Source of the DNA: an uncultured virus (IMG/VR IMGVR_UViG_3300044948_000587)
Lineage: Duplodnaviria; Heunggongvirae; Uroviricota; Caudoviricetes
Length of the DNA: 64,000 nucleotides
Strand: one strand, 5' to 3'
IMG/VR virus record: IMGVR_UViG_3300044948_000587
In this document: positions 23,670-46,136 of the stretch, piece after piece
Layout of the letters: each line of letters begins with the position of its first letter
Position numbering within the stretch: position 1 is the first letter of the stretch
The notes under the pieces: generated by a model
Seen by the model: the letters and a program-made list of their open reading frames with translations, nothing else
What the model was told of the DNA's origin: nothing
The model's database searches: none
Made by a program: the position numbers and the translations under genes

Positions 23670-23678
23670 GAATAAGAA

Positions 23679-25097
23679 ATGTCAATAGATAATAGTAAAA
23701 AATCCCCAAGGTTACTCCAAAGTAGAAGATATACACATGATACTTTTACTGATGCTCAAGAGGCTTTTACTTCAGTATTAGACATTAATGCAAATGAAAT
23801 TTATGTTGATCAAGATTTAATACCTGTAAGTAGTGTTCCTTTTGGAACAAGTGGAGATAATTTATCAATTTATAGTTCTGGTGGTCAAGATGTAATGAAA
23901 TATTACTATCGTTACAAGATGACTAAATCCAGTACGAATACTGAGGTTTGGTTTTTTACAACAGGAACGACAGCGGGAATTGATGCTCAGTTAATTGATT
24001 CTAACCAACAAAAAAACTTCATATCACCAAAATATTCAATCCCCTCACTATCTACTGCAAACGCGGAAGACAGTCCAGCGGGTTATGGTGTTAAAGTTTT
24101 TGTTTCAACGAACTCATCTTCACCATCTGCGGGTGATCAAATATCATCAACAAAATTTGTTTTTGATTATAAGACAGGAGTTTTACAATTTGTTTTAACT
24201 GCAGATAAACCAACGGATAGTCAATATGTTTATATATCTGCATATCAATATGTCGGTAGAACATTAAAAGATTCATTAAACAATTTAGGTAGTGCGGGAA
24301 TATTCCAACAAACAGGTTCATATTATTCAACTATTAATGATATCAAAATCACAGGGTCACTTGTTACTACAGGTGATTTAACTGTTGAAGGTACATTAAC
24401 TGCGAAGACGTTAATTATTTCGTCTTCAGTAACAAACATGGTTGTTCAATACGCTAGTGGATCAACAGCGTTTGGTGACACCGTAAATGACAATCATAAT
24501 TTCACAGGTTCGGTTAATATCACTGGTTCATTAACAATTAATGGACAATCATTTAGTGCTGCAACATCAGGCACAAGTGGTTCATCAGGAACGGCAGGTT
24601 CATCAGGAACAGCAGGTTCATCGGGTACTAGTGGTTCTGATGGTTCATCAGGTTCTAGTGGAAGTTCAGGTAGTAACGGTTCATCGGGTTCTAGCGGTAC
24701 TGCGGGTACATCTGGTTCAAGCGGTATTAGTGGGGTTAACGGAACAGATGGTTCTTCAGGTTCATCAGGAGATTCAATATTTGCACAAACGGGTTCTGCC
24801 CCTTATGATTTTTGGGCAACATCTAAAAATGTACAAATCACCGGTTCATTAATCACCTCAGGTTCTGTTATTATAAGGGGTGATTTAACGGTTGAAGGTA
24901 CCACAACATTAAATCAAAAAAATGATTTAAATAGAGAATCTTTAATAGTATCAGGAGCGTTAAATATTGTTGAGAGAAGAGTTAATACAACGTTAACATC
25001 GGCCTCATTATACTTTAATAATGAACTATCAATCATTAATAACACAATATCAAATCTAACATTCTCTGGAACATTTATTGACTCAGGAGAATTTTAA
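23679..25097 (+). CDS. Virion structural protein with Gly-X-Ser tract
   Basis: FDYKTGVLQF, YISAYQYVG; shares the STAFGDT..D.HNFTGS module; GSS tract at about 24567-24770. Confidence 0.7.
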   Translation: MSIDNSKKSPRLLQSRRYTHDTFTDAQEAFTSVLDINANEIYVDQDLIPVSSVPFGTSGDNLSIYSSGGQDVMKYYYRYKMTKSSTNTEVWFFTTGTTAGIDAQLIDSNQQKNFISPKYSIPSLSTANAEDSPAGYGVKVFVSTNSSSPSAGDQISSTKFVFDYKTGVLQFVLTADKPTDSQYVYISAYQYVGRTLKDSLNNLGSAGIFQQTGSYYSTINDIKITGSLVTTGDLTVEGTLTAKTLIISSSVTNMVVQYASGSTAFGDTVNDNHNFTGSVNITGSLTINGQSFSAATSGTSGSSGTAGSSGTAGSSGTSGSDGSSGSSGSSGSNGSSGSSGTAGTSGSSGISGVNGTDGSSGSSGDSIFAQTGSAPYDFWATSKNVQITGSLITSGSVIIRGDLTVEGTTTLNQKNDLNRESLIVSGALNIVERRVNTTLTSASLYFNNELSIINNTISNLTFSGTFIDSGEF

Positions 25098-25176
25098 AAA
25101 AATAAACAGAAATAATTCTACAAAAGAATAGAAAACAATAAAAATGAACTATTTATCAATTAAACAAATCAAATAG

Positions 25177-28785: not shown

Positions 28786-28805
28786 TAGTAAGTTTAAATA
28801 AAATT

Positions 28806-28836
28806 AAAAGGAGACCCTAAAAAGTCTCCTTTTTTT
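28806..28836 (+). terminator. Rho-independent terminator
   Basis: aaaaggagac-cctaaaaa-gtctcctttt plus T run. Confidence 0.88.
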
Positions 28837-28935
28837 ATTTATACAATACCAACTTTTGTTGTATTTATGTATAATACCTACATAGGTAATTAACCGTGAT
28901 ATATATCACAAAGATTTTTAAGGAAACCCATACAT

Positions 28936-31900
28936 ATGGCACAAATAGTAAAACTACGCAGAAGTTCTGTAGCTGGCAATAAACCAGTTAATGAAACATT
29001 ACAATTAGGGGAATTAGCATTAAATACAACCGACGGTAAAATTTATTTAGCCGTATCTGGTTCAGATGGTCCTACAATTGAAGAGGTAATTACTACAAAT
29101 GCATATAATACAGGTTCAGTAAATCTTAGTGGTAGTCTAAAAGTTGTCGGTACAGAATATGTAACCGGCTCAGTTATAATAACGGGTTCTTTATTCGTTA
29201 ACGGAAATTCATCATTCACATCATTAGTTGTTTCAGGTTCTGACCCTGTTGGTAATGTACAAGCTTACGTTCCACCAAGTTCAGTTTATGATCCTGCGTC
29301 ATTTAACACACCTGAAAGGGTTGCTAGTGGTATTCGTTTTAATTGGAATAATGAAAACTGGACTATTGGTGCAGCAAGAGGTGCAACAACCGATATTGAT
29401 GGTTTAATTTTTAGTAGAAACGGAGTTAAAAAATACATGTTGGACGAAGATGGTAATGCATCTTTATCAGGTTCAATGTATATAAGCGGTTCATTATTTG
29501 TTAATGGTGCTGAAGTTGGAACAGGTAAATTAAACGAAACAACATTTAATTCATATACAAGTTCAAATGTTTCACAATTTGCGGGAACATCATCATTTGC
29601 ATTAACCGCATCATATGTTGCAAATCCAACATTAGTATCAGGGTCAACAAAAAAATCAACAGTATCGGTAGGAGCAACAACATGGTCATTCAATCACCAA
29701 TTAGGTGAAAGATATCCATCAATTAATGTATTCGATTCAAATGGTTTTGTTGTTATCCCTAAAGATATTGAAACAATAGATGCAAATAACTTAAATGTAT
29801 ATTTTTCATCAAATCAGACAGGTACAGTAATTGCAACAATAGGCGGAGGAGGTTCGTCAGGAACGAGTGGTAATGGTACTTCAGGAACAAGTGGTTCATC
29901 GGGTTCTAGTGGAACAAGTGGTTCATCAGGAACTAGTGGTGTTAACGGTTCTTCAGGTACAAGTGGTGGTTCAGGTTCTTCAGGGTCTAATGGTACATCA
30001 GGTTCATCAGGAACGAGTGGTAGAGATGGTATTGGTGGTACAACACAAACATTTGCAGCATCTACAACATGGTCAGTAGCACATAATTTAGGTACTAATT
30101 TTCCGGCAGTAACTGTTTGGGACGATAATAAAAATGTGGTTATCCCAAGTCAAATAAAATCAATCGATACTAACAATATTGATGTTTATTTTGGTAGTCC
30201 AATTTCAGGTAGTGTAAATGTAATATTTGGTGGACATGTTGTTAGTGGTGCTATTGACACATCGGCGGTTGGACACATTGTACCTTCAGTTAATAACACA
30301 TATGATTTAGGTTCGGCATCAAAACAATTTAGACACTTATATTTGTCATCAGGTTCATTATATATTGACGGACAAAAAGTTTTGGGTAGTTCAAACCAAG
30401 AGTTACAAATTACAACGGATAATGGTCAATCATTAAAAATATTAGAACAAGGTACCGATACTATCACATTACAAAGTGCTGACGGAGACATTCAATTAAA
30501 AACATCTGCGGGTGGTAATGTATTGTTAGACCCAACAACAGGATTAATTGATTTAAGAGGAACGGTTCAAATACAAGACGGTAATAAAATTACAAGTTCA
30601 GGAGCAACTAAAGTTGTTTTTGGAAATGATATAGAAGTTACGGGTTCGATTAGAACAAGTGGTACATTAATTGTAAATGGGGTTTCATTCTCAGCCATGA
30701 CATCAGGAACTTCAGGTTCAAGTGGTGGTTCGGGTTCATCTGGTTCAGGTGGTACTTCAGGAACATCAGGTTCTAATGGGTCTAGTGGAACATCAGGTTC
30801 ATCAGGAACAAGTGGTACTTCAGGAAGTAGTGGAACGTCAGGCAGTTCAGGGTCATCGGGTACAAGTGGAACCTCAGTAACTGTTTCAGGTACTAACGAT
30901 GTAATTGGTAAATTCAGTTCAGGAACATTAGTTAATTCAAATATAACCGATAATGCTTCGGTAGTTAACATTAATTCAAATACAATAATCACAGGTTCAT
31001 TGACGATTACACAAAACTTAAATGTTTTAGGTTCATCATCAATAACTTATACGACAGCTTCCCAATTAAGGGTAGATGATAATGTTATTACGGTTAATGC
31101 CTCAAGTCCAGGTGTGAGATTTGCTGGTTTATCAGTAATTGATAGTGGTTCGTCACCTACCGTTTCGGGTTCATTCTTATTTGATTCATTAAATAATCAA
31201 TTTGTTTATGTTCACACAAATCAAGGTGTGGTAACATCTTCAGTTGTTATGGTGGGTGCACAAACTTACAATAGTTTAGGAAATGAGATTTTACCCACAC
31301 AAAATAGAATATTAAAATCTTTAGGTCAGGAACATCTTGGTGATTCTAATATTTCAGATGATGGCACAACAGTTAAAATTAGTACAAACACAGAAATAAC
31401 AGGTTCGTTAAGAGTTACAAGTTTAAATATTAACGGAACATCGTACGCCGCTGCTACAAGTGGAACGTCAGGTTCTTCAGGTAGTTCAGGTACAAGTGGT
31501 TCATCAGGAACATCAGGTTCTTCAGGTTCAAATGGTTCTTCAGGAACATCAGGTAGTTCAGGTTCTAGCGGAACATCTGGCAGTTCAGGTTCATCAGGAA
31601 CATCAGGTTCTAGTGGTAGTAACGGTTCATCAGGTTCTAGTGGTACAACAACAATCACAAATGCGGTAGATAATAGAGTAATGACAAGTGTCGGTGGTGT
31701 TACGTTAAATGCGGAAGCGAATTTAACATTTGACGGATCAACATTAACAGTAACAGGAGCAGTATCAACAACCGGTAACTTAACAGTAGGTGGAACATTA
31801 ACAGAAAACTCATCAGTAAGATATAAGGATAACATTGAAACTTTAAAATATGGTTTAGATAATGTTCTTAAAATGAGAGGTGTTTCATACATTAAAAAAG

Positions 31901-32082
31901 ATACAGGTGTTAAAGAGATTGGTTTAATAGCAGAAGAGTTAAATGAAATTGCACCTGAATTGGTAAATAAAAATGAAGAAGGATTACCTGATTCCGTTTC
32001 TTACGGTAGAGTAGTTTCATATTTGATTGAAGCAATAAAAGATTTAAAGAAAGAAATTGAAGAACTTAAATCAAATAAATAA
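28936..32082 (+). CDS. Tail fibre protein with C-terminal peptidase S74 intramolecular chaperone
   Basis: MAQIVKLRRS...GELALNTTDGKIY N-terminus; three GSS tracts; SSVRYKDNI...IGLIAEEL...PELV...LIEAIKDL S74 signature. Confidence 0.88.
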   Translation: MAQIVKLRRSSVAGNKPVNETLQLGELALNTTDGKIYLAVSGSDGPTIEEVITTNAYNTGSVNLSGSLKVVGTEYVTGSVIITGSLFVNGNSSFTSLVVSGSDPVGNVQAYVPPSSVYDPASFNTPERVASGIRFNWNNENWTIGAARGATTDIDGLIFSRNGVKKYMLDEDGNASLSGSMYISGSLFVNGAEVGTGKLNETTFNSYTSSNVSQFAGTSSFALTASYVANPTLVSGSTKKSTVSVGATTWSFNHQLGERYPSINVFDSNGFVVIPKDIETIDANNLNVYFSSNQTGTVIATIGGGGSSGTSGNGTSGTSGSSGSSGTSGSSGTSGVNGSSGTSGGSGSSGSNGTSGSSGTSGRDGIGGTTQTFAASTTWSVAHNLGTNFPAVTVWDDNKNVVIPSQIKSIDTNNIDVYFGSPISGSVNVIFGGHVVSGAIDTSAVGHIVPSVNNTYDLGSASKQFRHLYLSSGSLYIDGQKVLGSSNQELQITTDNGQSLKILEQGTDTITLQSADGDIQLKTSAGGNVLLDPTTGLIDLRGTVQIQDGNKITSSGATKVVFGNDIEVTGSIRTSGTLIVNGVSFSAMTSGTSGSSGGSGSSGSGGTSGTSGSNGSSGTSGSSGTSGTSGSSGTSGSSGSSGTSGTSVTVSGTNDVIGKFSSGTLVNSNITDNASVVNINSNTIITGSLTITQNLNVLGSSSITYTTASQLRVDDNVITVNASSPGVRFAGLSVIDSGSSPTVSGSFLFDSLNNQFVYVHTNQGVVTSSVVMVGAQTYNSLGNEILPTQNRILKSLGQEHLGDSNISDDGTTVKISTNTEITGSLRVTSLNINGTSYAAATSGTSGSSGSSGTSGSSGTSGSSGSNGSSGTSGSSGSSGTSGSSGSSGTSGSSGSNGSSGSSGTTTITNAVDNRVMTSVGGVTLNAEANLTFDGSTLTVTGAVSTTGNLTVGGTLTENSSVRYKDNIETLKYGLDNVLKMRGVSYIKKDTGVKEIGLIAEELNEIAPELVNKNEEGLPDSVSYGRVVSYLIEAIKDLKKEIEELKSNK

Positions 32083-33738: not shown

Positions 33739-34602
33739 ATGGCAAATCTTACAAATCTTACCATAAACGACACTGGTTATATACAATTACCATCGGGTAC
33801 AACGGCACAAAGACCCGTATCACCATTGACTGGTTATATTAGATTTAATACAACTATGGGTTTAGTTGAATATTACAACGGTACTTATTGGATAGATCAA
33901 ACAACCGGTAGAATTGCGGAAGGTGGTATTGTAACATCAAACTTATTACTTCATTTAGATAGTGGTAAACCAACGAGTTATCGCGGTGGTAATGTGTGGT
34001 ATGATGTTAGTTCACAATGTGCACATGGGATATTTGTAAACAGTCCAACATATACACCAGCTGATGGTTCGGGAGGTACCGTTTCATTTGACGGAACTAA
34101 TGATTATATTAGAATTTCTACATTAAATACATTACCAACAACACAAATAACTATGGAAGGTTGGATTAAACCAACAAGAACAGTAAGTACAGGTACAGTA
34201 AGAGGTGGTGTGGTTTCTGCAACAAATACAACATATTTGGGTATATTTAATTCCGCAGATGGTGGTAGTACACACTCTTTACATTGGGCAAATACTACCG
34301 ATAGTAGTAGACCATATAGTGCAGTTGGTAATATTCCCAATAATGTTTGGTCACACATTGTAGGTACATGGGATGGTTCAACGAGTAGAGCGTATGTGAA
34401 TGGTACTGAAGTATGGTCTGCGGCACAGACAGGGACAATTGCCGCTGCCACATATGTAGTTGGAACATATGGAAGTGGATTGACAGATGGGTTGCATAAT
34501 TTTCAAGGACAAATTGCAATTGCAAGAATGTATAGTATAGGATTAAGTGGAGCTCAAGTTTTACAAAATTATAATGCTCAAAGAAATAGATTTAATATTT
34601 AA
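33739..34602 (+). CDS. LamG/concanavalin A-like lectin domain virion protein
   Basis: LPSGTTAQRP...IRFNTT..VEYYNG; LLLHLD, FDGTNDY, WSHIVGTWDG, QNYNAQRNRF. Confidence 0.85.
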   Translation: MANLTNLTINDTGYIQLPSGTTAQRPVSPLTGYIRFNTTMGLVEYYNGTYWIDQTTGRIAEGGIVTSNLLLHLDSGKPTSYRGGNVWYDVSSQCAHGIFVNSPTYTPADGSGGTVSFDGTNDYIRISTLNTLPTTQITMEGWIKPTRTVSTGTVRGGVVSATNTTYLGIFNSADGGSTHSLHWANTTDSSRPYSAVGNIPNNVWSHIVGTWDGSTSRAYVNGTEVWSAAQTGTIAAATYVVGTYGSGLTDGLHNFQGQIAIARMYSIGLSGAQVLQNYNAQRNRFNI

Positions 34603-34607
34603 ATGTA

Positions 34608-35315
34608 ATGGCAAGTTTAAAAAATTTAACAATTAACGACACTGGATTTATTGGATTACCAACAGGTAGTACAGCTGAAAGACCATCTCCATCTAATGGA
34701 TATTTAAGATATAATACTACATTAGGTAGACCCGAAGTTTATATTAGTAGTTGGTTAAACCCATACGCCAGAACGGAAGGTTATTTACATTATTACGAAG
34801 GTAGAGATGCAAATTTATATACTGCAAATTGGAATAATAGCACAACGTATTCAATGTTAAATTTTGGTGGATTAGGTCATATTACGGCACATGGTTGGAC
34901 AACTGGTCCTGCAACATATACATTAACATTAGGTTCAATTCCAATACACACACAAGTTCGTTATTTAGTATTTTGGCATTTAGTAGATTCGTTGGATACT
35001 GAAACAAGTAATTTGTACTTAATGAACTCAGCCGGAACTGAAACTGAATTTCTAAGATTTACAAAGATATATAACGCGGTACCAACCACATCGGTTTTAC
35101 AATCGGGAGCAACAGCAACGTGGAGTGGTGCTAAATCGTACACATATAGACCTTGGGCAAGTGGAGCATATGGAAACGATGGTTACTATTTATTTGATAG
35201 TGGATATTATGACCACACATCCACATCATTTACTGCAAGACACGTATGTGGTGCAGACCAAGCACAAGCGGATGAAGCGATGTATCTTTCACACGTTCAA
35301 TTATGGATTAAATAA
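34608..35315 (+). CDS. Virion protein with LPTGSTAERP module and unknown C-terminal domain
   Basis: Same N-terminal module as its neighbours. Confidence 0.7.
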   Translation: MASLKNLTINDTGFIGLPTGSTAERPSPSNGYLRYNTTLGRPEVYISSWLNPYARTEGYLHYYEGRDANLYTANWNNSTTYSMLNFGGLGHITAHGWTTGPATYTLTLGSIPIHTQVRYLVFWHLVDSLDTETSNLYLMNSAGTETEFLRFTKIYNAVPTTSVLQSGATATWSGAKSYTYRPWASGAYGNDGYYLFDSGYYDHTSTSFTARHVCGADQAQADEAMYLSHVQLWIK

Positions 35316-35321
35316 TAAATT

Positions 35322-36983
35322 ATGGCAACACTTAAAAATACAACAATAACAAGTTCTACGGGATATTTGGGGTTACCATCTGGAACAGGAACACAACGAC
35401 CATCACCAACAACTGGAATGATGAGATATAATTCAAGTCGTACTGAGGTTGAAGTATATGATGGTACCAAATGGATGAGTGTACAAAAAAGAAAAGAAAA
35501 TTATAGTACATCTGGTTTAGTTTGTTATATAGATGCAGGTGACCCTAATTGTTATAGTGGTAATGGTAGTACATTAACCGATTTATCAGGAAATGCTAAT
35601 AATTTAACTCTACCTGGTTCAGGTGTTTCATTTAATACTACCGGAGGAGGTTCTTTATATTTTGATGGAACCGCAAGAGCAAACGTTGCACATCATAGTT
35701 CATTGGATTTTACTAGTACACAACAATATACTGCGTTAATTTGGGTAAATCCATCATTAGGTGGTGGAACTTGGCACGGATTAATTAGTAAAGGAGATTC
35801 ACAACAATACGCCGCAACATTGAGAAGTGCATTCGGATATATTCATTATGAAACAAATTACTCATTGGCAGCGATAGATACACCCAATAATTCAATAATA
35901 GGAAGTAAGTGGCAACAAGTTGTCATTAGAAGTGACGGGTCATCAAAAGCAACATTTATTGATACAATACGATGTGCATATGTAACAGGTGCCGTTAGTT
36001 CAACTACAAATACTGAAACATTGAGATTTGGTGAAGGTAATACGGGAGAATTACTTATTGGTTATTTAGGAGCGGTTATGATTTATAACCGAGCATTAAG
36101 TGATGAAGAAATTGGAAATATATTTAATGAACAAAGAGGTAGATATGGAGTAGATGCACCATTAGGATCGGCATTTAATCCAGCGGATTCGGCACAAACA
36201 ATAAAGACCTTAAATACAAATGCACCAAATGGTGTATATTATATAAATTTACCCAATATCGGCCCGAGAAAAACATTTTGTATTATGGATAGTACATATG
36301 ATGGAGGGGGTTGGATGATGGTAATGAAAGCCACACGAGGAACTACTTTTAATTATGGGGCAAGTTATTGGACCACACAAAATGTATTAAATCAAAATAA
36401 TTTAAATCAAGATGATGGTGATGCCAAATACGATGCATTCAATTATTTTGAAGGTACAGATTTAATGGCTAGATGGCCCGATATTCCAACTACTGGTGGT
36501 AGTATTGCGGGAACAGGAAATTGGATATGGATGGAAAAAGGGTTTAATGGTGGTAGAGCTAGTACGCGAACAAATTTAGTAGATTTTTTTACTAATGCAG
36601 GAACATACGAAAGTGGTGATGGTGGTACTTATGGTGGATATTTTTTAAGAGATGCAAAAACTTTTACTGGTTGGGCAAGTGGAGTATTTTCAAGTCAAGT
36701 AGATATTAGATTTTATGGATTTAATTTTAGAAACAACCCATTGTATTTTGGTGCAACCGATGCCAAAGTTAGATGGGGGTTTGGTTGGAATGAAAACGGA
36801 GAAGGGTTGTATACATCACCCGCTACTTTGGCAGTTGGACCATATAGAGGTTCGGATGATGTAAGTGGTGGTATTGGTATGGATAGTAGATATGGTAATT
36901 TCTCAGGTGGAGATTTGATTGGTTGTTGTCAAGATACGACTGGTATAAATAGAAGTGCAAGAGTGGAAGTCTATATTAGATAA
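35322..36983 (+). CDS. LamG plus fibrinogen-C-like domain virion protein
   Basis: LPSGTGTQRP; LamG (YIDAG...IYNRALS); NGVYYI...FCIMDS..GGGWMMV fibrinogen-like motif. Confidence 0.8.
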   Translation: MATLKNTTITSSTGYLGLPSGTGTQRPSPTTGMMRYNSSRTEVEVYDGTKWMSVQKRKENYSTSGLVCYIDAGDPNCYSGNGSTLTDLSGNANNLTLPGSGVSFNTTGGGSLYFDGTARANVAHHSSLDFTSTQQYTALIWVNPSLGGGTWHGLISKGDSQQYAATLRSAFGYIHYETNYSLAAIDTPNNSIIGSKWQQVVIRSDGSSKATFIDTIRCAYVTGAVSSTTNTETLRFGEGNTGELLIGYLGAVMIYNRALSDEEIGNIFNEQRGRYGVDAPLGSAFNPADSAQTIKTLNTNAPNGVYYINLPNIGPRKTFCIMDSTYDGGGWMMVMKATRGTTFNYGASYWTTQNVLNQNNLNQDDGDAKYDAFNYFEGTDLMARWPDIPTTGGSIAGTGNWIWMEKGFNGGRASTRTNLVDFFTNAGTYESGDGGTYGGYFLRDAKTFTGWASGVFSSQVDIRFYGFNFRNNPLYFGATDAKVRWGFGWNENGEGLYTSPATLAVGPYRGSDDVSGGIGMDSRYGNFSGGDLIGCCQDTTGINRSARVEVYIR

Positions 36984-37024: not shown

Positions 37025-37711
37025 ATGAATAATATCGGTATAGGTATAATGTGTTTCGGTGATGTTTCCTATTTTAACAGTACAAAAGAAAAAGTTACCA
37101 ATTTAAAAGATATTGGAATTGATTGTTATATCTTAACCGATGAACCAGAACAATTTACAACTAAAACCATACACTACGGTAGACACCTCAAGTCATATCA
37201 TGATAAGATAATATTAGTTAAAGAAATATTAAAAAATCACAATATCTGTATTCTAATAGATGCCGACACTTTTATCTCCGACTATTCATTTATCGAACAG
37301 TTAGTTAACTATCCATACCAAAATGGAATTACATATGTTGAAACTCTATTAAGTCATAAGATAAAAAAAGAATTCATAAGAGATATTCAAATGAATATTG
37401 GAGATATTGATTGGTTAAATTATAAAACATATCTCCAAAAAATATATCCACAATATGGTGATTTAGAGACCATTTACGAGTACTTCTTGGTTTTCAATAA
37501 AGAAGGATTAAAAGATAATTTCTTTCTCTTATATGAGAAGTTACAATCAATTAAAGAGGCGTGTGATGTGATGAGTGGAAAGAAAATTGTGGTAGGGTCA
37601 GCTGAAGGTGTATCAATACAAGTTGCCGCAAAAATTACGGATACCCAAATACAAAAAGATGTGGTATTATTTGAATTAATTAAAGATAAAATTAAAAATG
37701 ATTCAAGATAA
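37025..37711 (+). CDS. Putative GT-A fold glycosyltransferase
   Basis: YILTD, SYHDK, ILIDADT DxD motif; ATG at 37025. Confidence 0.5.
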   Translation: MNNIGIGIMCFGDVSYFNSTKEKVTNLKDIGIDCYILTDEPEQFTTKTIHYGRHLKSYHDKIILVKEILKNHNICILIDADTFISDYSFIEQLVNYPYQNGITYVETLLSHKIKKEFIRDIQMNIGDIDWLNYKTYLQKIYPQYGDLETIYEYFLVFNKEGLKDNFFLLYEKLQSIKEACDVMSGKKIVVGSAEGVSIQVAAKITDTQIQKDVVLFELIKDKIKNDSR

Positions 37712-38453
37712 CAATTATATAAAAAAATACATCACCAACAATCAAGAATTTGATGAAATGGGTGATGAAATATTAAAAAGTGTACCGTTTCGTTGGAGCC
37801 ATGGTGCAACAGATTTACATATGGGTGATGGTATCATTGTGTATGCGTTGATACAACATATGAGAGCAAAGACTTGCGTTTGTTTAGGTAGCGGTGGTGG
37901 TTTTATTCCACGTATCATGACACAAGCAAGAATTGATTTACACAAACAAGAAATATTTGAAGGTAACGGTAGTCATAATTGGGGAGACATAGGTGAGACC
38001 TATATTGTTGACGCAATGAACGGAGTTGGTGGACAAGTTAATTGGTTTGATGAAGATAGTTTTCTTAGAAAATGGTTTCAACCAAGAATAATTAATACCA
38101 CAACCGAAGATGCCTTTCATAACTACTTCGTTTTAAACGATATAAAGATTGATTATTTACATATTGATGCCGGACATAGTTATGAAAATGTTAAAGAAGA
38201 CTTTGAACTTTATACACAGATATTATCAACGAATGCAATCGTATCTATACACGATACCGACCCAAATTATGCCGACAAATACATTGTAACCAACGAGGTT
38301 AAAGATAGGGGTGATTTTGATGATTGGACAGGACCAATTAAGTTTAACCAAGAAATCGATGAGACAAAATGGGAAAAAATTAATCTATTTAATTTTGGTA
38401 TAGTTAAAAACAAACCATCATCCACAGGAATTACAATTTTACGTAAAAAATAG
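37698..38453 (+). CDS. Class I SAM-dependent methyltransferase (Methyltransf_24-like)
   Basis: CLGSGGG, IDYLHIDAGHSYENVKEDF, IHDT. Confidence 0.85.
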   Translation: MIQDNNYIKKYITNNQEFDEMGDEILKSVPFRWSHGATDLHMGDGIIVYALIQHMRAKTCVCLGSGGGFIPRIMTQARIDLHKQEIFEGNGSHNWGDIGETYIVDAMNGVGGQVNWFDEDSFLRKWFQPRIINTTTEDAFHNYFVLNDIKIDYLHIDAGHSYENVKEDFELYTQILSTNAIVSIHDTDPNYADKYIVTNEVKDRGDFDDWTGPIKFNQEIDETKWEKINLFNFGIVKNKPSSTGITILRKK

Positions 38454-38500: not shown

Positions 38501-39352
38501 ATGGTAAGATTAGTTACAGTTATAGGTCACGGAGTTAAATTACTACCTCATTTCATTAAACATTATTCAAGATATGTTGATGAAATTAATATAGTTGTTT
38601 ACCAATCAGACTTACATCCAGATTTACATGATGAAGTGTCACAATACATTGAAAATCAAAACAATGTAAAAATTGTACATACATTAACGGAAAGAATATT
38701 TGATTGGGAAAAGGTAACTAGTTTATATAATTTCATAAAATCAAAACACAAAAATGATTGGTGGGTAGTCGCCGACATTGATGAGTTTCATTTATACCCT
38801 GATGATGATTTACCAAAAGTAATTCAAACATGTGAAGAGTATGGTTTTGAAATGGTTAGAGGTGGGTTTATTGATAGAATAGGTAGAGGTGGAGAGTTTG
38901 CAGAATTGGTTGACGATGTATCTATATGGGACCAATTTCCGAACGCAGGATTTTTTAGATATCCAATGAGTAGTGCAAACCCTAATAAAATATGTCTAAT
39001 GAAAGGTTTTGTTGAAATAACATCAGGACAACATTATGCTAAAATAGATGGTCAAACAACTTGGAAATGGCAAGGATGGAATCATCCACAAATAAACCCA
39101 ATCGATTTCGTTCAAGTACATCATTTCAAGTGGGATAGAACATCAATCGAAAGAATAAAAACCGTTGCTGAATTAAACGAAGATTATGCATATTCAAATG
39201 AGTATTTCACAATGTTTAAAGAATTAATAAAAACTAAATTTAGAATAAATCTAATGGAAAAAGATTTCATGTTTGAATTGGGTTTGATATACCCCAAATA
39301 TGAATTATATAAAAATTGGAATAAATTAATAAACAAAATAATATCAATATGA
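38501..39352 (+). CDS. Glycosyltransferase family 2-like (Glyco_tranf_2_4 type)
   Basis: LLPHFIKHY, WWVVADIDEF, GQH, HHFKW. Confidence 0.75.
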   Translation: MVRLVTVIGHGVKLLPHFIKHYSRYVDEINIVVYQSDLHPDLHDEVSQYIENQNNVKIVHTLTERIFDWEKVTSLYNFIKSKHKNDWWVVADIDEFHLYPDDDLPKVIQTCEEYGFEMVRGGFIDRIGRGGEFAELVDDVSIWDQFPNAGFFRYPMSSANPNKICLMKGFVEITSGQHYAKIDGQTTWKWQGWNHPQINPIDFVQVHHFKWDRTSIERIKTVAELNEDYAYSNEYFTMFKELIKTKFRINLMEKDFMFELGLIYPKYELYKNWNKLINKIISI

Positions 39353-39374: not shown

Positions 39375-40781
39375 ATGAGATTAGCGATAATAGTACCATA
39401 TAGAGACAGAAGAGACGATTTAGATGTGTTTATACCACACATGGAAAAATTTTTAGCTAATAAACAAATAGATTATAAAATTTTTGTTGCTGAACAATCT
39501 GACGATAGGGCTTTCAATTACGGTAAAATATGTAATGCAGTTTTTAATGAAATAAAAGATGATTACGATTATTTTTGTTTTCATGACGTAGATTTATTAC
39601 CATTAAATGACGATGCTGATTATTCTTATAAAGACATCCCAACACATTTGGTTTTTGAGAATAAAAATAAAGAAAAGATATTACCATACAGCCAATATTT
39701 CGGTGGTGTGGTAATTTTTAGTAAAAACGATTTTATAAAGATAAACGGATTTGGGAATGACTATTGGGGTAAAGGATATGTTGATTTAGATTTATTATAT
39801 CGATGTTTAAAAAGTAAAATTACCTTAACTAAAAATTACGATTATAATCTTAAAGAAATACTCAAATCTGATTTAAAATATAGAAACATTACCAAAAAGG
39901 TTTCTAAAATTGTTTTACCTGAAAATTCAATTATAGTTAATAGAAAATCTGACGTCATTGCCACCAATTTTACGTTAAGTTTTCATTATAAAGAAGTGAG
40001 ACAAAATAGGAAAAAAATAGTAATTTTTAGGACACTTGATTTTGGAGATTTCCAAATATTCACCATAAATGGACAAATGATTTTACAATTTTTTGATAAG
40101 GGTAAACTATTCCAAATCGACATTAACAACGAAGTCGATATAACTCAGTTTAATCATTTTACATTTACTCACGATTACAATAAAAAAGAATTTATTATCT
40201 ATATAAATGGTGTTGAAAAATTTAATATTAATTATACCATAAATTATAATTTTACCAAAAAAAATGTTATATTAGGTGATATAGACAATAGCGTAAAAAT
40301 TGAATTAATTGATTTTAAATTGTTTACAAAAAAACTAACAAAAAATGAAGTTAATAGAAATTTTTACTATGGGGTAAAATCAAATTGTTTTGAATTTAAT
40401 AAGATTACGTTTTACGATAATGTAACAAAATTTATTGATGAGCATTTTAACATTTGGGAAATTATGGGTAAAACAACATCCGATAAAGAAAACTTAATAA
40501 TTGGTGAAATGTTAATGGTAGATGTGGTTAATAAACAATTAAATAAAGTAAAATATACACCAAATAAAATAAAAGGAAGATATGAAATTAGAGGTAATAA
40601 ATTTGATAACATTGAAACAACGTATCATCCCGATATATTAGAAAATAAAAACACTTACTATAATGATTTGTTGACTAATAAGATTAATACAAGTAAGTTT
40701 GGACTAAAAAGTGTTAAGTACACTTTATTGAATAAAATAGAATATAATAATAACACAGAATGGTTAAAAATATCTCTTTAA
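39375..40781 (+). CDS. GT7 galactosyltransferase-like protein with inserted LamG-like domain (degenerate active site)
   Basis: IIVPYRDR, FNYGK, FHDVDLLP, YFGGV, INGFGNDYWGKGYVDLDL. Confidence 0.8.
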   Translation: MRLAIIVPYRDRRDDLDVFIPHMEKFLANKQIDYKIFVAEQSDDRAFNYGKICNAVFNEIKDDYDYFCFHDVDLLPLNDDADYSYKDIPTHLVFENKNKEKILPYSQYFGGVVIFSKNDFIKINGFGNDYWGKGYVDLDLLYRCLKSKITLTKNYDYNLKEILKSDLKYRNITKKVSKIVLPENSIIVNRKSDVIATNFTLSFHYKEVRQNRKKIVIFRTLDFGDFQIFTINGQMILQFFDKGKLFQIDINNEVDITQFNHFTFTHDYNKKEFIIYINGVEKFNINYTINYNFTKKNVILGDIDNSVKIELIDFKLFTKKLTKNEVNRNFYYGVKSNCFEFNKITFYDNVTKFIDEHFNIWEIMGKTTSDKENLIIGEMLMVDVVNKQLNKVKYTPNKIKGRYEIRGNKFDNIETTYHPDILENKNTYYNDLLTNKINTSKFGLKSVKYTLLNKIEYNNNTEWLKISL

Positions 40782-41338
40782 CAAAGTATCAAGTTGAAAA
40801 TCTTGAAAATATCGCAGATTTATTAGAAAGTATTGATTATTCTAAAGAAGATGCTGAAATTAAATTTTTAACTCTTATTGTGAATATTGAAAGCCTTTTA
40901 CCAAAATCAAATATTTTTGATTACGTGTTTAAGACGGATATCACGAAAGATAAGAAATTAGAATTACAGGAAAATAAAAAACAAAAATTTGTGGTAATAA
41001 ATGACAATGTGGAGTTGTTAAAATCATTACCAAATGATATTGAATTTAAGTGGAGCCAAGTAAATAATAAATACGATATCATAAATAACACATACGATGA
41101 AATAAAAAGTATCGAATCAAACATCCAAGATATTCACACACAAATGAGTGAAATAGCTTCTGAAAACGATGTGTTATATGGTGAGATAGAAAATATTGAC
41201 TTTGAAATATCACAAATTGATAACTACATTGAGGAGTCCGAATGGAAAGTAGACTTGGATAGTCACGAAGAAATAACATTTAATAAAATAAAAGAAAAAT
41301 TAATAATCGAAAAAAAGTTTAATTATGGAAATATCTAA
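40760..41338 (+). CDS. Acidic coiled-coil hypothetical protein
   Basis: Heptad-rich C-terminal half. Confidence 0.55.
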   Translation: MVKNISLTKYQVENLENIADLLESIDYSKEDAEIKFLTLIVNIESLLPKSNIFDYVFKTDITKDKKLELQENKKQKFVVINDNVELLKSLPNDIEFKWSQVNNKYDIINNTYDEIKSIESNIQDIHTQMSEIASENDVLYGEIENIDFEISQIDNYIEESEWKVDLDSHEEITFNKIKEKLIIEKKFNYGNI

Positions 41339-41570
41339 AGAAGAACAACACGAATTAAATAAAAAGGGTGTTGAAGCTATGACAAGAATTGCAACCTCAT
41401 TGGAGGGTATAAACGATTGGGTTTATACATTAAATACCGCAGCATGGTCAGAGAGACTAGAGTGGTATTTAAACGAATTTTATCAATTAGCTAAAGCAAA
41501 AACTATCGGTTCATCCGATAGACCAACAAAAGAATATGAAGAAGAAACTGGCGATAATAGTCCCTTATAG
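41325..41570 (+). CDS. Hypothetical protein
   Basis: 81 aa ORF overlapping both neighbours. Confidence 0.6.
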   Translation: MEISKEEQHELNKKGVEAMTRIATSLEGINDWVYTLNTAAWSERLEWYLNEFYQLAKAKTIGSSDRPTKEYEEETGDNSPL

Positions 41571-42783
41571 GGATAGAAGTACTCATTTAAATACGTTTAT
41601 TTCATACATGGAATCTTATTTAAAAGATTACACATATGAAATCATTGTTATTAATCAAGCGGATAACCAACCATTTAATAGAGGTAAATTATTAAACATC
41701 GGCGCAAAATATGCCATAGACAATGGTTTTGATTATTTGTGTTTTCACGATGTAGATATGTTACCAATTAATGCAGATTACTCATATCCTAAAGAACCAA
41801 CAAGTCTAATATCTGAATTGGAAAATAAAGAAGGTAATATATTTTTTACTTACTTTGGAGGTATCACTTTATTTAATATTCAAGATTTTATAACGGTGAA
41901 TGGATATTCTAATAACTATTGGGGGTGGGGATATGAAGATACTGATTTATTTTATAGAGTTACACATAGCGGATTATTTTTTGATTCTGAAATGATTGGT
42001 GAGAATGACTATTCTTTATTTTCTGTTGAATTAAAAGAAGAGGATTATATAAAAATACCAATAGACTCTAAATTCATTGATGGCGATTTTAATATTAAAT
42101 TAACCACAAAAGTTGAATCTAAGTATTTCGATGAGAATAAAAATTATGATGAATATCCAATATTATCCATACCGGGATATAACATTGGTATTTTTTATAA
42201 TTCATTTAATAGATTTTTTATACAGGTTTATGATACTAATAAAAAACCATATTCAATTACAACGGACATTTTAGATGACGTAACATCAAGTTTTACATTT
42301 TCTAAGGTTAGGAATACAATTTCATTCTCAATGAATAACAAATTAATTGGTGAAGTTGTTATGGATAGTCCAATACTTAATTTAGACAATGAATTTATGT
42401 ATATAGGAACGTTCTCTGAAAAAGAAAAAATCGAATTTGATTTAACAATAATTGACATTGAAATTGACGACTATCATTTAGGTACAAATGATTATGAATT
42501 AATAGGTGGCGTTATTAATTCTGATAAAATGATATCACATAGAACTTCAATACCAAAACCAATTAGAAGAGAAGGGTTATATCGTGAATTATATCACGAC
42601 AGTAACTCATCAATTAACAAATCTTGGGTACATAAAGAAACTAGAAATAATCAAATATTTTTTAATAATTTTGTTAAGCAAAATTTAATTGATTTCACTA
42701 AAGAAGGATTAAACACACTTCAATATGAATTAATTTCGGAAAAAGATAATAATAACCATAAAATTTTGTCCGTATCATTATGA
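41536..42783 (+). CDS. GT7 galactosyltransferase with inserted LamG-like domain
   Basis: IIVPYRDR, FNRGKLLNIG, FHDVDMLP, NGYSNNYWGWGYEDTDL, LYH, EGLNTLQY. Confidence 0.87.
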   Translation: MKKKLAIIVPYRDRSTHLNTFISYMESYLKDYTYEIIVINQADNQPFNRGKLLNIGAKYAIDNGFDYLCFHDVDMLPINADYSYPKEPTSLISELENKEGNIFFTYFGGITLFNIQDFITVNGYSNNYWGWGYEDTDLFYRVTHSGLFFDSEMIGENDYSLFSVELKEEDYIKIPIDSKFIDGDFNIKLTTKVESKYFDENKNYDEYPILSIPGYNIGIFYNSFNRFFIQVYDTNKKPYSITTDILDDVTSSFTFSKVRNTISFSMNNKLIGEVVMDSPILNLDNEFMYIGTFSEKEKIEFDLTIIDIEIDDYHLGTNDYELIGGVINSDKMISHRTSIPKPIRREGLYRELYHDSNSSINKSWVHKETRNNQIFFNNFVKQNLIDFTKEGLNTLQYELISEKDNNNHKILSVSL

Positions 42784-44192
42784 GTCATAAATTAGGGATT
42801 TGTATACCATATAGAAATAGAAAAGAACATTTAGATAAATTAGTTCCACATCTTTCTGAACATTTAACAAAACAAGGAATAGAACATACTTTTTATGTTG
42901 GACATCAACTAGACGATAAATTATTTAACAGAGGGGCGATGAAAAACATTGCAGCTAAATATGCGTTTGAAGATGGGTGCGACTATATTGCATGGCACGA
43001 TGTGGATATGTTACCACAAGAAAATGCGGACTATTCGTACCCATCGGAAACCCCTGTACATATCGCAACTAAATTGTCAAAGTATAATTATGGTTTAGGT
43101 TATGATCAATACTTTGGTGGCGTTGTATTATTCACAAAAGAACAAGTTGAAAAAACTAACGGATACTCAAATGATTATTGGGATTGGGGAATGGAAGATG
43201 ATGATTTATTTTGGAGATCATATTTTGAAGGTATGACAACTGGTGATATCTTTAAAGAATATAAAAGTAAAAAAATAGGTATTTTCAATGGAATAAATTC
43301 ACATGTTGAAATACCTGCTAATAGAAAATTAGTAGAATGTTTAAATAAAAACCATACAATATCTTTTTTAGTTTGTGCAGAACAACAACCAGAGAAAGTA
43401 CCAATTTGGTTAATTGGTGACAAAGAAAAGAAATTTATCGAATATCCAATCTTTGTAAAAACGGGCGGTTACAATTATATGTTATCTTTTAATAACTCAA
43501 GAGCCTTCACGATGAAAGTATTTGACGAAAGAAGAAACCCAATTTATAATTGGATTAAAAGATTTGAATCTCTTTGGACTTGGGTTACGTTATCAATAGA
43601 CACAGAAAATAATCAAATGTATTTTTATCTAAATAACGAACTGACAAGAAATCAATTCGGTACCAAAGAAAATTTACCAATTTCTTATGAAGGTAAACTA
43701 ATGAGATATGATTTAAGAAATCCATTTATGATTGGATTTGATAATTTTACTAACACAAGATTTAAAGGTAAAATTGCAAGAATAAAACTATATAATAAAT
43801 TTTTTAATAGTGAAGAAATAAATAACATAATTGATGATAAATTAGATACTCCACTATTAAATTTTGATTTTGATAATTTAACGCAAGAGTATCAATTAAA
43901 CAACATTGATTTAATAGATGAACAAATTCAAGTTATTGAAAATATTATACCATTTAGAAGAGAGGGGGTTTTTGATTGTCTATCACATATAGATGAGGGT
44001 TATGTAGGGGGTACGTGGAAAAAAGGTGAAACTACAGCTAAAAATGAAAAAAGGTTTGTTTCTGAAATGCAACAAGGATTGATTAATTACAAAGAAGATG
44101 GTTTAAATAATATATTGAATGTAATGGATATTGATAATGTAGATGTATCTTTATATCCAAACACTAAATTTATAAATGTAAAAATGAAATGA
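42780..44192 (+). CDS. GT7 galactosyltransferase with inserted LamG-like domain
   Basis: CIPYRNR, FNRGAMKN, WHDVDMLP, NGYSNDYWDWGMEDDDL; insert ending FKGKIARIKLYN; DGLN. Confidence 0.87.
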   Translation: MSHKLGICIPYRNRKEHLDKLVPHLSEHLTKQGIEHTFYVGHQLDDKLFNRGAMKNIAAKYAFEDGCDYIAWHDVDMLPQENADYSYPSETPVHIATKLSKYNYGLGYDQYFGGVVLFTKEQVEKTNGYSNDYWDWGMEDDDLFWRSYFEGMTTGDIFKEYKSKKIGIFNGINSHVEIPANRKLVECLNKNHTISFLVCAEQQPEKVPIWLIGDKEKKFIEYPIFVKTGGYNYMLSFNNSRAFTMKVFDERRNPIYNWIKRFESLWTWVTLSIDTENNQMYFYLNNELTRNQFGTKENLPISYEGKLMRYDLRNPFMIGFDNFTNTRFKGKIARIKLYNKFFNSEEINNIIDDKLDTPLLNFDFDNLTQEYQLNNIDLIDEQIQVIENIIPFRREGVFDCLSHIDEGYVGGTWKKGETTAKNEKRFVSEMQQGLINYKEDGLNNILNVMDIDNVDVSLYPNTKFINVKMK

Positions 44193-45574
44193 GCGACTTT
44201 GACGTAACCAAAAGTGAATTAGATAAGGTAGGTTGTGGTATGTGTTTAGCAAAATGGACACAAGTTACTATGCATTTACACAATGGAATGACACACTCAT
44301 GTCATCACCCTGTACCACATAAAATACCATTAAGTGAAATAAAAGAAAATCCAACAGCATTACACAATACCAAATATAAGAAATTGGCTCGTAAAGAAAT
44401 GTTGGAAAATAAAAGACCTGGTGAATGTGACTATTGTTGGAATGTTGAAGATAATTCTAATTCATTTTCAGATAGAGTATTTAAATCAAATGAATCTTGG
44501 TCATTACCACATTTAGAAGAAATTAAAGGATTAAATTGGAAAGCAAATTATAACCCAAAATATGTTGAGGTAAGTTTTTCAAATACATGTAATTTTAAAT
44601 GTGCATATTGTAGTCCAATGGCATCTTCAAAGTGGGTTGAAGAAATTGAAAAATTTGGTGGGTACCCGTTGTCATATAATTTTAACAATTTAGAGTGGTT
44701 AAAAGAAACTGGTCAGTTACCATATAAACAAACAGAATACAATCCGTATGTGGAATCTTTTTGGAATTGGTGGCCTGAATTGTATAGAGACTTACATACA
44801 TTTAGAATAACGGGTGGTGAACCATTGTTAGCTAAAGATACTTGGAAGGTATTAGATTTTATTGCTGAGACACCCGAACCAAACAGAAAACTAAATTTAT
44901 CTATTAATACCAATTTAGGTGTACCAAAAAACTTGATTAATGAGTTTGTTAAAAAGGCTAAGAAGATAATTGAGGAAGATAGGGTTAACGAATTTATTAT
45001 ATTCACATCATGTGAAACATGGGGAGAACAAGCTGAGTACATTAGATTTGGTTTGAACTTTAATCAATTCTTAGAAAACGTTGAATACATTCTACAAGAG
45101 TTACCTAAAGTGACTATCAACATTATGTCTACATTCAATGCCTTATCACCATTTGGTTATGATAAGTTAATTGATAAGGTACAAGAACTAAAAGAAAAGT
45201 ACCAAAATAAAGAAAGATATTGGAATTCGGCAATTCAATTAGATACTGCTTATTTAAGATGGCCACCACATTTATCCGTTAAAATTCTGGATAGAGAACA
45301 TAAGGATTTAATCTTAGAGTCAGCTAAAAAGGCATTCTATTATGCAACACCAAAATTCACAAACGATTACTTTGGATTTTCAGATACCGAAGTTCAAAAG
45401 ATTAAAAGACTTTATGATTTTGCAATATCTGATGATGGATTTGAAGTTGAAAAGAACAGATTAGATTTTGTTAAATTTGTTGATGAATATGACATAAGAA
45501 AGGGTACGAATTTTTTAAATACATTCCCACAATTAGAAAACTTTTATAATGAAATTAGAAATAAAAAAAGGTGA
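44189..45574 (+). CDS. Radical SAM protein with N-terminal twitch/SPASM-like Cys cluster
   Basis: CNFKCAYC, ITGGEP, N-terminal CLAKW..SCHH..ECDYCW. Confidence 0.9.
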   Translation: MSDFDVTKSELDKVGCGMCLAKWTQVTMHLHNGMTHSCHHPVPHKIPLSEIKENPTALHNTKYKKLARKEMLENKRPGECDYCWNVEDNSNSFSDRVFKSNESWSLPHLEEIKGLNWKANYNPKYVEVSFSNTCNFKCAYCSPMASSKWVEEIEKFGGYPLSYNFNNLEWLKETGQLPYKQTEYNPYVESFWNWWPELYRDLHTFRITGGEPLLAKDTWKVLDFIAETPEPNRKLNLSINTNLGVPKNLINEFVKKAKKIIEEDRVNEFIIFTSCETWGEQAEYIRFGLNFNQFLENVEYILQELPKVTINIMSTFNALSPFGYDKLIDKVQELKEKYQNKERYWNSAIQLDTAYLRWPPHLSVKILDREHKDLILESAKKAFYYATPKFTNDYFGFSDTEVQKIKRLYDFAISDDGFEVEKNRLDFVKFVDEYDIRKGTNFLNTFPQLENFYNEIRNKKR

Positions 45575-46136
45575 ACCATGGGTCATGTGGCCCGACCTAT
45601 TAGTGGGTAATTTTAACAATTTTCCTGCTAATAAAATTTTTGACCACAAGGGTGACTATGTTTTTACAATCGAGTTTGAATTGGTTGAACAAATCACCGA
45701 TAAAGTGTGTTTATTCTCAAAATTACCGTCATATTTGGGGGTTGATTTAAGAAATGGAGGGATTACCTTCACTTATTCACAAAAGGATAAGGAGACGGAT
45801 TATATTGACGCCAATTACAACTGGTTGGTTGGTAAGAAATATGAATTGAAAATTGAAAAGAAAGAAAAAAATGTTATATTAACAATAGACAAGTTTCAAA
45901 TTTTTAATTTTAAAATTGAAAACGATTTAAAAGAAGATTCTGACTCACATATTATATTTGGGGCAGGTAATTTTCCTAAAAATGGGTTTAATTTAAATTA
46001 TTTTAACGTTATATTATACAGTATTAAAATAGTAAAAGATGGTGAAGTAATTTCACATAATGACTTTGAAAAATTCATACACGGAAAAAGTTATGATATA
46101 ACCGGTAACTGTAATTTTATTCACAAAATAATATAA
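45549..46136 (+). CDS. Stand-alone LamG-like beta-sandwich protein
   Basis: Beta-strand-rich pattern, IIFGAG, ends YDITGNCN. Confidence 0.45.
   Translation: MKLEIKKGEPWVMWPDLLVGNFNNFPANKIFDHKGDYVFTIEFELVEQITDKVCLFSKLPSYLGVDLRNGGITFTYSQKDKETDYIDANYNWLVGKKYELKIEKKEKNVILTIDKFQIFNFKIENDLKEDSDSHIIFGAGNFPKNGFNLNYFNVILYSIKIVKDGEVISHNDFEKFIHGKSYDITGNCNFIHKII

Follow-up and report, generated by a model that had tools for sequence, protein, structure and literature searches.

Three paralogous phage proteins of the GT7 glycosyltransferase family carry a LamG-like domain within the catalytic region

The window, by which we mean the whole 64,000-nucleotide stretch of DNA analysed, comes from a large uncultured phage of aquatic origin and contains three intact open reading frames on the plus strand that encode GT7 proteins with a LamG-like insert: G1 (class A; 39375..40781, 468 aa), whose active site is altered, G2 (class B; 41536..42783, 415 aa) and G3 (class C; 42780..44192, 470 aa). 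An assembly artefact or a fusion by frameshift was ruled out, as the exact G1 sequence occurs on 25 contigs and the exact G3 sequence on 27. The G2-G3 pair is present in all 81 loci compared, within a cassette whose other members are also encoded on the plus strand. These are a Methyltransf_24 methyltransferase (37698..38453; 74/81 loci), a GT2-family glycosyltransferase (Glyco_tranf_2_4; 38501..39352; 76/81 loci), a twitch-type radical SAM enzyme (NF033640; 44189..45574; family in 78/81 loci), a second enzyme of that type (NF033640; 46141..47586), a free-standing LamG-like protein (45549..46136) and an 81-aa protein (41325..41570). The gene for the 81-aa protein lies directly upstream of G2 in each of the 73 loci with at least 2.5 kb of sequence upstream of G2 and is found once in 5/5 near-complete genomes; its product had no match in Pfam or NCBIfam. 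A complex prediction for G3, G2 and this protein (aa 3-66 as partner, its fold being uncertain) scored 0.00 against a mark of 0.32, which counts neither for nor against a complex. A coiled-coil-like ORF of 192 aa (40760..41338, plus strand) is shared only by the window and the two loci closest to it. The window also codes for NDP-sugar epimerases/dehydratases and an RmlC-like enzyme.

All three proteins scored above the cut-offs of Pfam Glyco_transf_7N (65-80 bits; cut-off 27) and Glyco_transf_7C (53-69 bits; cut-off 23), in agreement with the sequence-only reading, which had called them GT7 proteins split by an inserted LamG-like domain. We used AlphaFold2 models of G2 (pLDDT 90.2, pTM 0.88) and G3 (pLDDT 87.7, pTM 0.83) to examine the fold. 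The G2 model (1..415) superimposes on residues 178..398 of bovine B4GalT1 with Z 26.7, rmsd 1.9 Å and ~32% identity over 209 aligned residues, and in this predicted structure the flanks of the insert refold into one B4GalT1-like domain that includes the C-terminal lid segment. The Foldseek comparison of the G3 model with known structures aligned only the N-terminal GT part, and the GT7 C-terminal part of G3, like that of G1, was assigned from profile matches. By profile comparison, the C-terminal ~75 aa of each class correspond to the C-terminus of uninserted GT7 relatives of ~220 aa (score 33-34, E 3e-6 to 5e-6; maximum score 14-21 among 20 column-shuffled controls per class), and the inserts gave no match to the uninserted GT7 proteins (E 0.26-0.57). 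An HMM built from the uninserted GT7s gave only weak matches to the C-terminal segments (E<0.01 in 0/11 class A, 2/80 class B and 14/81 class C sequences), so that profile-profile comparison and structure were needed. A simple two-domain fusion was ruled out, since the GT7 C-terminus comes after the LamG domain.

The inserts occupy one shared site and comprise 244 aa in G1 (aa 150-393; 39822..40553), 192 aa in G2 (aa 148-339; 41977..42552) and 236 aa in G3 (aa 153-388; 43236..43943), all on the plus strand; the length of 200-250 aa given earlier thus applies to G1 and G3, G2 falling slightly under it. Most class B inserts exceed that of G2 by ~55 aa. The insertion point follows the position of bovine B4GalT1 residue ~330 and precedes the flexible lid and the metal-binding His by about 10-15 residues; it therefore leaves lid and active site intact. 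Structure prediction, proposed earlier as the check on the insert, bore out the LamG fold. Residues 160-331 of the G2 model align with laminin LG, agrin, neurexin, PAPP-A and pentraxin domains (Z 15.5-16.4, rmsd 2.5-3.0 Å) at 5-15% identity, and Foldseek matched the G3 insert to PAPP-A and pentraxins (E 1e-10 to 1e-8). Against Pfam Laminin_G_3 (PF13385; cut-off 27.6), G1 scored 33.5 bits (5.6e-8), G3 27.1 bits, just below the cut-off, and G2 gave no match; the G1 insert was found to be homologous to those of G2 and G3 by profile comparison. The LamG domain is predicted to sit on a two-stranded stalk.

The invariant residues of the inserts are mostly polar or aromatic, and a conserved polar patch was seen in the G3 insert (Q202, Q203, E221, N238, N239, S240, R241, K260 and E263). 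The best fold matches presumably range from sugar-binding domains to ones with protein or Ca2+ ligands, and for that reason the fold does not show lectin activity. Judging from dN/dS values of 0.064, 0.079 and 0.093 (3, 13 and 22 pairs), which are near those of the GT parts, the insert is under purifying selection. Sequence order suggests a circular permutation of the insert with respect to the two virion-type LamG proteins of the phage (33739-34602 and 35322-36983, spanning 33739..36983 on the plus strand), whose unpermuted order served as the reference. Class A showed no signal in the permutation test, and the score of the free LamG family f7 lay inside the shuffled range. The free LamG protein of the cassette is a distant relative of the inserts and has the same permuted order.

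The DxD metal-binding motif is present as HDVD in G1, G2 and G3. G2 (FNR, DVD, GWGYEDTD, His354) and G3 (FNR, DVD, DWGMEDDD, His403) also have the GWGxED-type motif with the equivalents of Glu317, Asp318 and Asp320, the first Gly of this motif being Asp in 70/70 class C sequences. Across class C, the R, E, D, D, D and His positions are retained in all 70 unique sequences; class B retains His, E and the Asp318 equivalent in 69/69 and Arg in 68/69. Both classes retain Tyr at the Tyr289 position, which we take to be linked to a preference for galactose over GalNAc. The acceptor loop of G3 is aromatic and aligns with B4GalT1 Phe280/Tyr286, residues whose roles are described, as is the GWGxED motif of GT7, in the consulted part of PMC4202792. 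The WGWG.EDDD-type and final His motifs had been attributed to all three proteins; they are found in G2 and, with Asp for the first Gly, in G3, and G1 departs from them, since it lacks the equivalents of Arg228 (Tyr49), Glu317 (Val136) and the lid His. G1 has GKGYVDLD at the GWGxEDDD site, FNYG in place of FNR and no lid His in its final segment, and it retains DVD and the Asp318/Asp320 equivalents. The Arg228 equivalent is replaced in 34/34 sequences of the class A alignment, and the lid His is retained in 18/34. On these residues, G1 is a GT7 homolog that should not be classed as a beta-1,4-galactosyltransferase.

G1, G2 and G3 represent three old paralog classes, and a recent tandem duplication was ruled out, as each class forms its own clade in the tree. 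In this tree (midpoint root; computed without P0227 and without the class A row of L001) the uninserted group lies beside class C at weak support (86/79), a placement that does not decide between a single insertion and several. The family had been presented as best known from eukaryotes, to which it proved not to be confined, as many viral contigs encode uninserted GT7 forms. The search with G1 as query yielded only 2 viral loci, a tblastn search with G3 gave no match among 50,697 annotated phage records, and no description of a GT7 protein with an internal LamG domain was found in a literature search of titles and abstract openings. Animal B4GALT enzymes have a type II membrane anchor. G1, G2 and G3 begin directly at the catalytic domain without one; to judge from a maximum 19-residue hydropathy of 0.73-1.11, they have no membrane segment and are soluble, and five neighbouring cassette proteins likewise have none in the hydropathy scan.

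Upstream in the window lie four fibre-type genes (19797..32082, plus strand) that contain G-(S/T)-(S/A) tracts in collagen register and encode candidate acceptors; the last has an S74 chaperone domain. The association with Ser/Thr-rich fibre genes held across loci, fibre-type genes being found within 10 kb upstream in 48/52 loci and downstream in 0/52; the upstream signals were the S74 chaperone in 28 loci and long ORFs with at least 20% S+T in 46. Fibres are generally rich in Ser and Thr and accessory islands often come after tail genes, so that this adjacency is weak evidence. The G-(S/T)-(S/T) tracts themselves were found within 10 kb upstream in only 14/52 loci; among near-complete genomes they are present in 3/7 and missing from 4/7 that retain the enzymes, and two genomes (G007 and G008) encode a tract-free homolog of the fibre protein found in the window.

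We see about an even chance that G2 and G3 elongate a fibre glycan, with the LamG domain as acceptor or docking arm. Both would likely work by inversion, with a dependence on Mn2+, and transfer a hexose (probably galactose) onto an already primed glycan of the Ser/Thr-rich fibre proteins that the phage itself encodes, thereby extending the sugar coat of the fibres; the LamG domain likely holds the glycosylated acceptor beside the active site. A priming transferase would act first; none was identified in this analysis, and the adjacent GT2 is perhaps a candidate for this earlier step. The methyltransferase and the radical SAM enzymes may tailor the sugars, and G1 likely either takes a different donor or acts as a partner without catalysis of its own. 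Virion glycosylation has been reported for mycobacteriophages, as cited in the part of PMC12619734 used here. A wider picture, conceivable and still doubtful, is that an aquatic jumbo-phage lineage runs a cytoplasmic, membrane-free assembly line for virion glycans, in which three GT7 paralogs of animal type divide the labour, the 81-aa protein is a constant partner, radical SAM enzymes tailor the product and the permuted LamG domain steers all of these, reading the growing glycan from inside the fold.

The sequence-only reading had inferred a processive modification of the Ser/Thr tracts and likened the insert to the lectin that guides ppGalNAc-Ts; on this view sugar would be attached straight to Ser/Thr of the G-S/T tracts. 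The window offers it four tract-bearing fibre genes upstream, with tracts in collagen register and without Pro, and Thr glycosylation is cited as a stabiliser of collagen helices in the part of PMC3368898 consulted. However, animal GT7s act on sugar acceptors according to the relevant passage of PMC4202792, G3 retains that acceptor loop, and DVD with an internal LamG is unlike the DxH and C-terminal ricin domain of GT27 enzymes described there. Together with the scarcity of the tracts, upstream in few loci and in a minority of near-complete genomes, this leaves the proposal with the least probability of all readings considered. Sugar hypermodification of phage DNA or nucleotides as a defence against restriction is barely more probable: genes of the radical SAM, methyltransferase, carbamoyltransferase and 2OG-Fe(II) types occur nearby and some phage glycosyltransferases are known to glycosylate DNA (PMC12619734, in part), yet the cassette sits with fibre genes rather than replication genes. 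High-scoring thymidylate synthases were found in 3/5 complete genomes, there only singly and with no second, hydroxymethylase-like copy, and a Tet/JBP match was found in 0/5, a weak argument given that the control was silent too.

Two other explanations are improbable to a lesser degree. The insert could be a protein-docking module rather than a lectin, joining G1, G2, G3, the free LamG protein, the radical SAM enzymes and the 81-aa protein in one glycan-building complex, and this we regard as unlikely. Such a role would fit related LamG domains that are free in 73/81 loci and elsewhere form fusions with radical SAM enzymes, the 81-aa gene found in 73/73 loci, a conserved hydrophobic loop of class C (aa 200-222, low model confidence) and a G1 insert that is conserved although the active site is degenerate. 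The largely polar or aromatic invariant residues of the insert would instead suit a sugar site, and the matches of the class B profile to PDB sequences include sialidase-associated domains (E 0.002-0.009), presumably of the CBM40 lectin type. More unlikely still is that the cassette acts during infection on a glycan of the host surface (LPS, capsule or glycoproteins) and remodels it, for instance so that superinfection is prevented. The many sugar-nucleotide enzymes in the window and the dispensability of the G-(S/T)-(S/T) tracts are consistent with this, as are phage glycosyltransferases known for serotype conversion (PMC12619734, in the part seen). The three GT7s and five neighbours without a membrane segment, the lack of a flippase or polymerase in the Pfam scan of window genes and the consistent position beside fibre genes argue against it.

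These results show that the B4GalT fold has a surface position just before the lid that tolerates a whole domain of ~200 residues, and such a site, in soluble and anchor-free proteins, is of use for understanding and engineering GT7 enzymes. The three classes could serve as a natural series for rules of donor specificity, with two canonical active sites and one altered donor pocket, and should the virion be the target, the cassette would offer a testable way into self-glycosylation by the phages of a large uncultured lineage.

Compared to animal B4GalT1 and B4GalT7 (CAZy GT7; PDB 1tvy, 1nf5, 1o0r, 4irq and 3lw6), the phage proteins share the GT-A fold across the whole catalytic domain, and G2 and G3 also the DxD, FNR, W-G-x-E-D and lid His. 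They differ in being phage-encoded, without a membrane anchor and with 190-245 aa of LamG inside the fold, and in occurring as three paralogs, of which one has an altered donor pocket. Other relatives are the uninserted viral GT7s of ~210-230 aa (P0213, P0228; loci L113-L148) and giant-virus GT7s (A0A481YZG5), which are 45-52% identical over the N-terminal part, soluble and collinear with the phage GT7s in their N- and C-terminal parts, but have no insert and lie outside the cassette. According to the part of PMC4202792 consulted, ppGalNAc-Ts are retaining GT27 enzymes with DxH and a C-terminal ricin lectin that prime Ser/Thr, whereas animal GT7s work by inversion and transfer to an acceptor that is itself a sugar, extending rather than priming. 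The likeness to GT27 is a functional analogy only, that of a GT-A domain with a possible carbohydrate-binding domain that could guide it to glycosylated acceptors; the phage proteins have a GT7 fold, DVD and an internal LamG, and gave no GT27 or ricin match in Pfam or PDB searches. The insert itself has the same beta-sandwich fold as laminin-G/LNS, pentraxin and PAPP-A LG domains (PF13385), from which it differs by its low identity, its nesting in a cytoplasmic enzyme and its apparent permutation relative to virion-type LamG.

The sequence-only reading had described three GT7 galactosyltransferases, each split by a LamG-like domain, and an interrupted GT7 was indeed found in all three proteins. 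G1 (39375-40781, + strand), G2 (41536-42783, + strand) and G3 (42780-44192, + strand) are intact ORFs that passed both GT7 Pfam models. The Pfam matches cover the first ~150 residues, and the matches of G2 and G3 to B4GalT1 and B4GalT7 (E about 1e-26 to 1e-33) also end near residue 150. As a test for true insertion, short uninserted relatives were sought for comparison; P0228, an uninserted viral GT7 of 223 aa, aligned with B4GalT1 across residues 3-212, through the lid segment. Profile comparison of the paralog classes A, B and C, which hold G1, G2 and G3 respectively, showed that, in every class, the final ~75 aa correspond to the C-terminus of uninserted GT7s, represented by 12 proteins (scores 33.3, 33.9 and 33.4, E 3e-6 to 5e-6; maxima of 20 shuffled controls each, 14.5, 14.4 and 21.2). 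In the same comparison the inserts gave no match to uninserted GT7 proteins. A plain HMM detected the C-terminal GT7 segments weakly. The inserts, of 244, 192 and 236 aa, are homologs of each other (profile comparison, E 6e-6 to 3e-13).

Structure prediction supported the LamG insertion in G2 and G3. AlphaFold2 models of G2 (pLDDT 90.2, pTM 0.88) and G3 (pLDDT 87.7, pTM 0.83) showed an all-beta insert with two long strands as entry and exit. VIA-align placed G2 1..415 on bovine B4GalT1 178..398 (Z 26.7, rmsd 1.9 Å, 209 residues) and G2 160-331 on laminin alpha2 LG4-5, agrin, neurexin, PAPP-A and pentraxins (Z 15.5-16.4). Foldseek with G3 put B4GalT7/1 at the top and PAPP-A and pentraxins next, and also matched viral LamG proteins. 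The G1 insert scored above the Laminin_G_3 Pfam cut-off. Counted along B4GalT alignments, the insertion point falls after bovine B4GalT1 residue ~330 and leaves about 10-15 residues ahead of the lid histidine, which is His347 by our count. The anchors of this count were the VIA-align chain range and residue numbers from the available text of PMC4202792. In the window G2 (41977-42552 compared with L013:858-2282) the insert is ~55 aa shorter than is usual for class B; the strand and helix that normally come last in the LamG are missing, yet the model shows a complete sandwich. The G2 proteins of loci L001 and L007 share the short insert, judged by length, and among 79 class B proteins 12 have fewer than 440 aa.

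The insert is under purifying selection, with dN/dS of 0.064, 0.079 and 0.093 (3, 13 and 22 non-overlapping pairs) compared to 0.039-0.085 for the N-terminal GT part. It also appears to be circularly permuted relative to the virion-type LamG of the window, on modest statistics. In class B the N-terminal 'head' of the virion-type LamG matched after the core (insert 201-231 vs core 16-186; score 25.4, maximum of 30 shuffled 14.9), and in class C partly after it (23.4 vs 16.5 shuffled). In two free LamG families the head matched at the C-terminus (25.1 vs 17.6 and 19.2 vs 11.6 shuffled); class A gave no signal in this test, and the score of a third free family lay inside the shuffled range. Among 80 matches of the G3 insert in a 50%-cluster library, all 16 proteins of 430-559 aa were GT7s, with the head after the core in 6, and 19 of the 21 long proteins were tandem-LamG proteins; these counts cover 16 + 21 proteins, the remaining 43 being shorter. 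A register shift in a tandem LamG array would be a simple origin for the permuted insert.

The G2-G3 pair was present in 81/81 loci (80 viral loci and the window), where the presence of G3 follows from how the loci were searched, and 11 of these loci have a third gene; a second set contained 30 loci with three genes. The three classes are old, each forming one side of a branch in the N-terminal-domain tree (A, 10 rows, 99/96; B, 18 rows, 93/82; C, 18 rows, 100/99). Class C kept the equivalents of Arg228, Glu317, Asp318-320, Tyr286, Tyr289 and the lid His in 70/70 unique sequences, and class B those of the His, Glu317, Asp318 and Tyr289 in 69/69 and the Arg in 68/69. In class A, defined as the first of three GT7 genes, the Arg228 position was replaced in 34/34 (31 Tyr, 3 Lys), the Glu317 position was variable (16 Glu), and Asp318 was kept in 26, Asp320 in 32 and the His in 18. 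Lys occupies the Arg228 position in the first-of-three GT7s of L151, L156 and L188; in B4GalT1, R228K raises glucosyltransferase activity (PMC4202792). Window G1 retains both Asp and has lost the Arg, Glu and His, so the catalytic and final-segment motifs previously ascribed to all three proteins hold for G2 and G3 only. According to PMC4202792, B4GalT1 carrying R228K recognizes the 4-hydroxyl of galactose less well, so G1 probably uses a different donor or has a role other than catalysis.

The surrounding cassette runs methyltransferase (74/81), GT2 (76), G1 where present, an 81-aa gene, G2, G3, twitch radical SAM (78) and free LamG. The 81-aa protein (41325-41570), of no known family, is encoded just upstream of G2 in 73/73 loci with enough flank and is single-copy in 5/5 near-complete genomes; with Ile22, Trp41, Arg44 and Tyr48 invariant, it is a possible accessory subunit. 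Related LamG domains are free in 73/81 loci and are also found joined to radical SAM enzymes. Cassettes of the same type encode fusions of two tandem LamG domains with a radical SAM, as well as a protein with a double LamG (L009:11418-14240, L011:11430-14252 and L026:14758-16116). Four proteins of ~420 aa, for which Pfam gives little or nothing (47589-48869, 54263-55549, 57733-58977 and 58980-60236), cluster with recurrent cassette neighbours and are possibly further glycan enzymes. Sugar-nucleotide and tailoring genes lie at window positions 3538-5134, 50243-57657 and 62291-63955 and at 64813-65624 of the genome. A family scan identified epimerases/dehydratases, an RmlC-like enzyme, a split transketolase/E1-like pair, PfkB and a carbamoyltransferase among them, and an APS-kinase-like and a nucleotidyltransferase-like ORF were recognized by eye.

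GT7 with a LamG insert is a real and widespread feature. A search returned 1656 matches among 4628 candidates, a figure that counts matches, of which the best 120 are listed, and not insert carriers. We found no description of this architecture in the literature searched, which covered few subscription journals. Relatives were found on viral contigs as long as 335 kb, and in the Atlas clusters of G3 100% of the members that have a record are viral. The three GTDB matches (L193, L194 and L195), all on contigs of metagenome-assembled genomes and within the same cassette, are likely phage contigs binned with bacteria; L193 comes from a Flavobacteriaceae MAG. A tblastn search of 50,697 annotated phage records with G3 found no match. 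The window, with ~30% G+C, covers the first 64 kb of a virus record of 72,658 bases, and Pfam and family scans identified SbcC-like, ClpP, sigma-70, NusG and D12 methyltransferase genes in it; four long fibre-type genes (19797-32082) precede two LamG proteins, after which genes related to glycans are densely packed. In our reading the window comes from an aquatic, uncultured jumbo phage. A Shine-Dalgarno-like word stood at 1 of 53 window gene starts, and A at -3 in 33 of 53. Such gene starts fit a Bacteroidota host, and given the lack of Shine-Dalgarno sites this is our guess. For a jumbo lineage whose hosts are predicted to be Bacteroidota, four core glycosyltransferases have been reported, and the available text of PMC12619734 on that lineage mentions no galactosyl, laminin or lectin.

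Fibre-type genes lay within 10 kb upstream in 48 of the 52 loci whose flanks are complete, and downstream in 0/52 (43 of these with at least 9 kb downstream). The window fibre tracts keep a collagen Gly-X-Y register in which X is Ser or Thr, Y is mostly Ser and Pro is absent; the 1202-aa ORF has 151 triplets of this kind. A strict G-(S/T)-(S/T) tract was found upstream in only 14/52 loci, in 11/31 records searched and in 3/7 records at least 90% complete, so tracts are not required and hydroxyl-rich fibres are a general neighbour. Homologs of the window fibre protein in the relatives G007 and G008 have no tracts. Two of four tract-less genomes were inspected in full: G007 encodes tract-free fibre proteins of 24-32% Ser+Thr, and G012 (L103, L104 and L107) encodes, elsewhere in its genome, several proteins with long Thr-Pro mucin-like repeats, which are candidate alternative acceptors. 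Direct glycosylation of the fibre tracts is highly improbable.

Architecture, fold, motifs, selection and gene context are what the analysis showed; the roles of the proteins are proposed. We consider it an evenly balanced proposition that G2 and G3 would act in the cytoplasm and lengthen a glycan already primed on fibre proteins; the location is suggested by hydropathy, which revealed no membrane segment in the three GT7s. The LamG insert would hold the acceptor, G1 would supply another sugar or act as a scaffold, and the remaining cassette enzymes would tailor the product. That the LamG is instead a protein dock seems unlikely to us; remodelling of the host surface by the cassette is a decidedly unlikely alternative, and DNA modification a very improbable one. 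As described in PMC4202792, the GT7s of animals are inverting, Mn2+-dependent and transfer Gal to GlcNAc or Xyl, and GT27 enzymes are retaining and prime Ser/Thr. The GT27 enzymes carry a C-terminal ricin domain, whereas the window GT7s carry an internal LamG.
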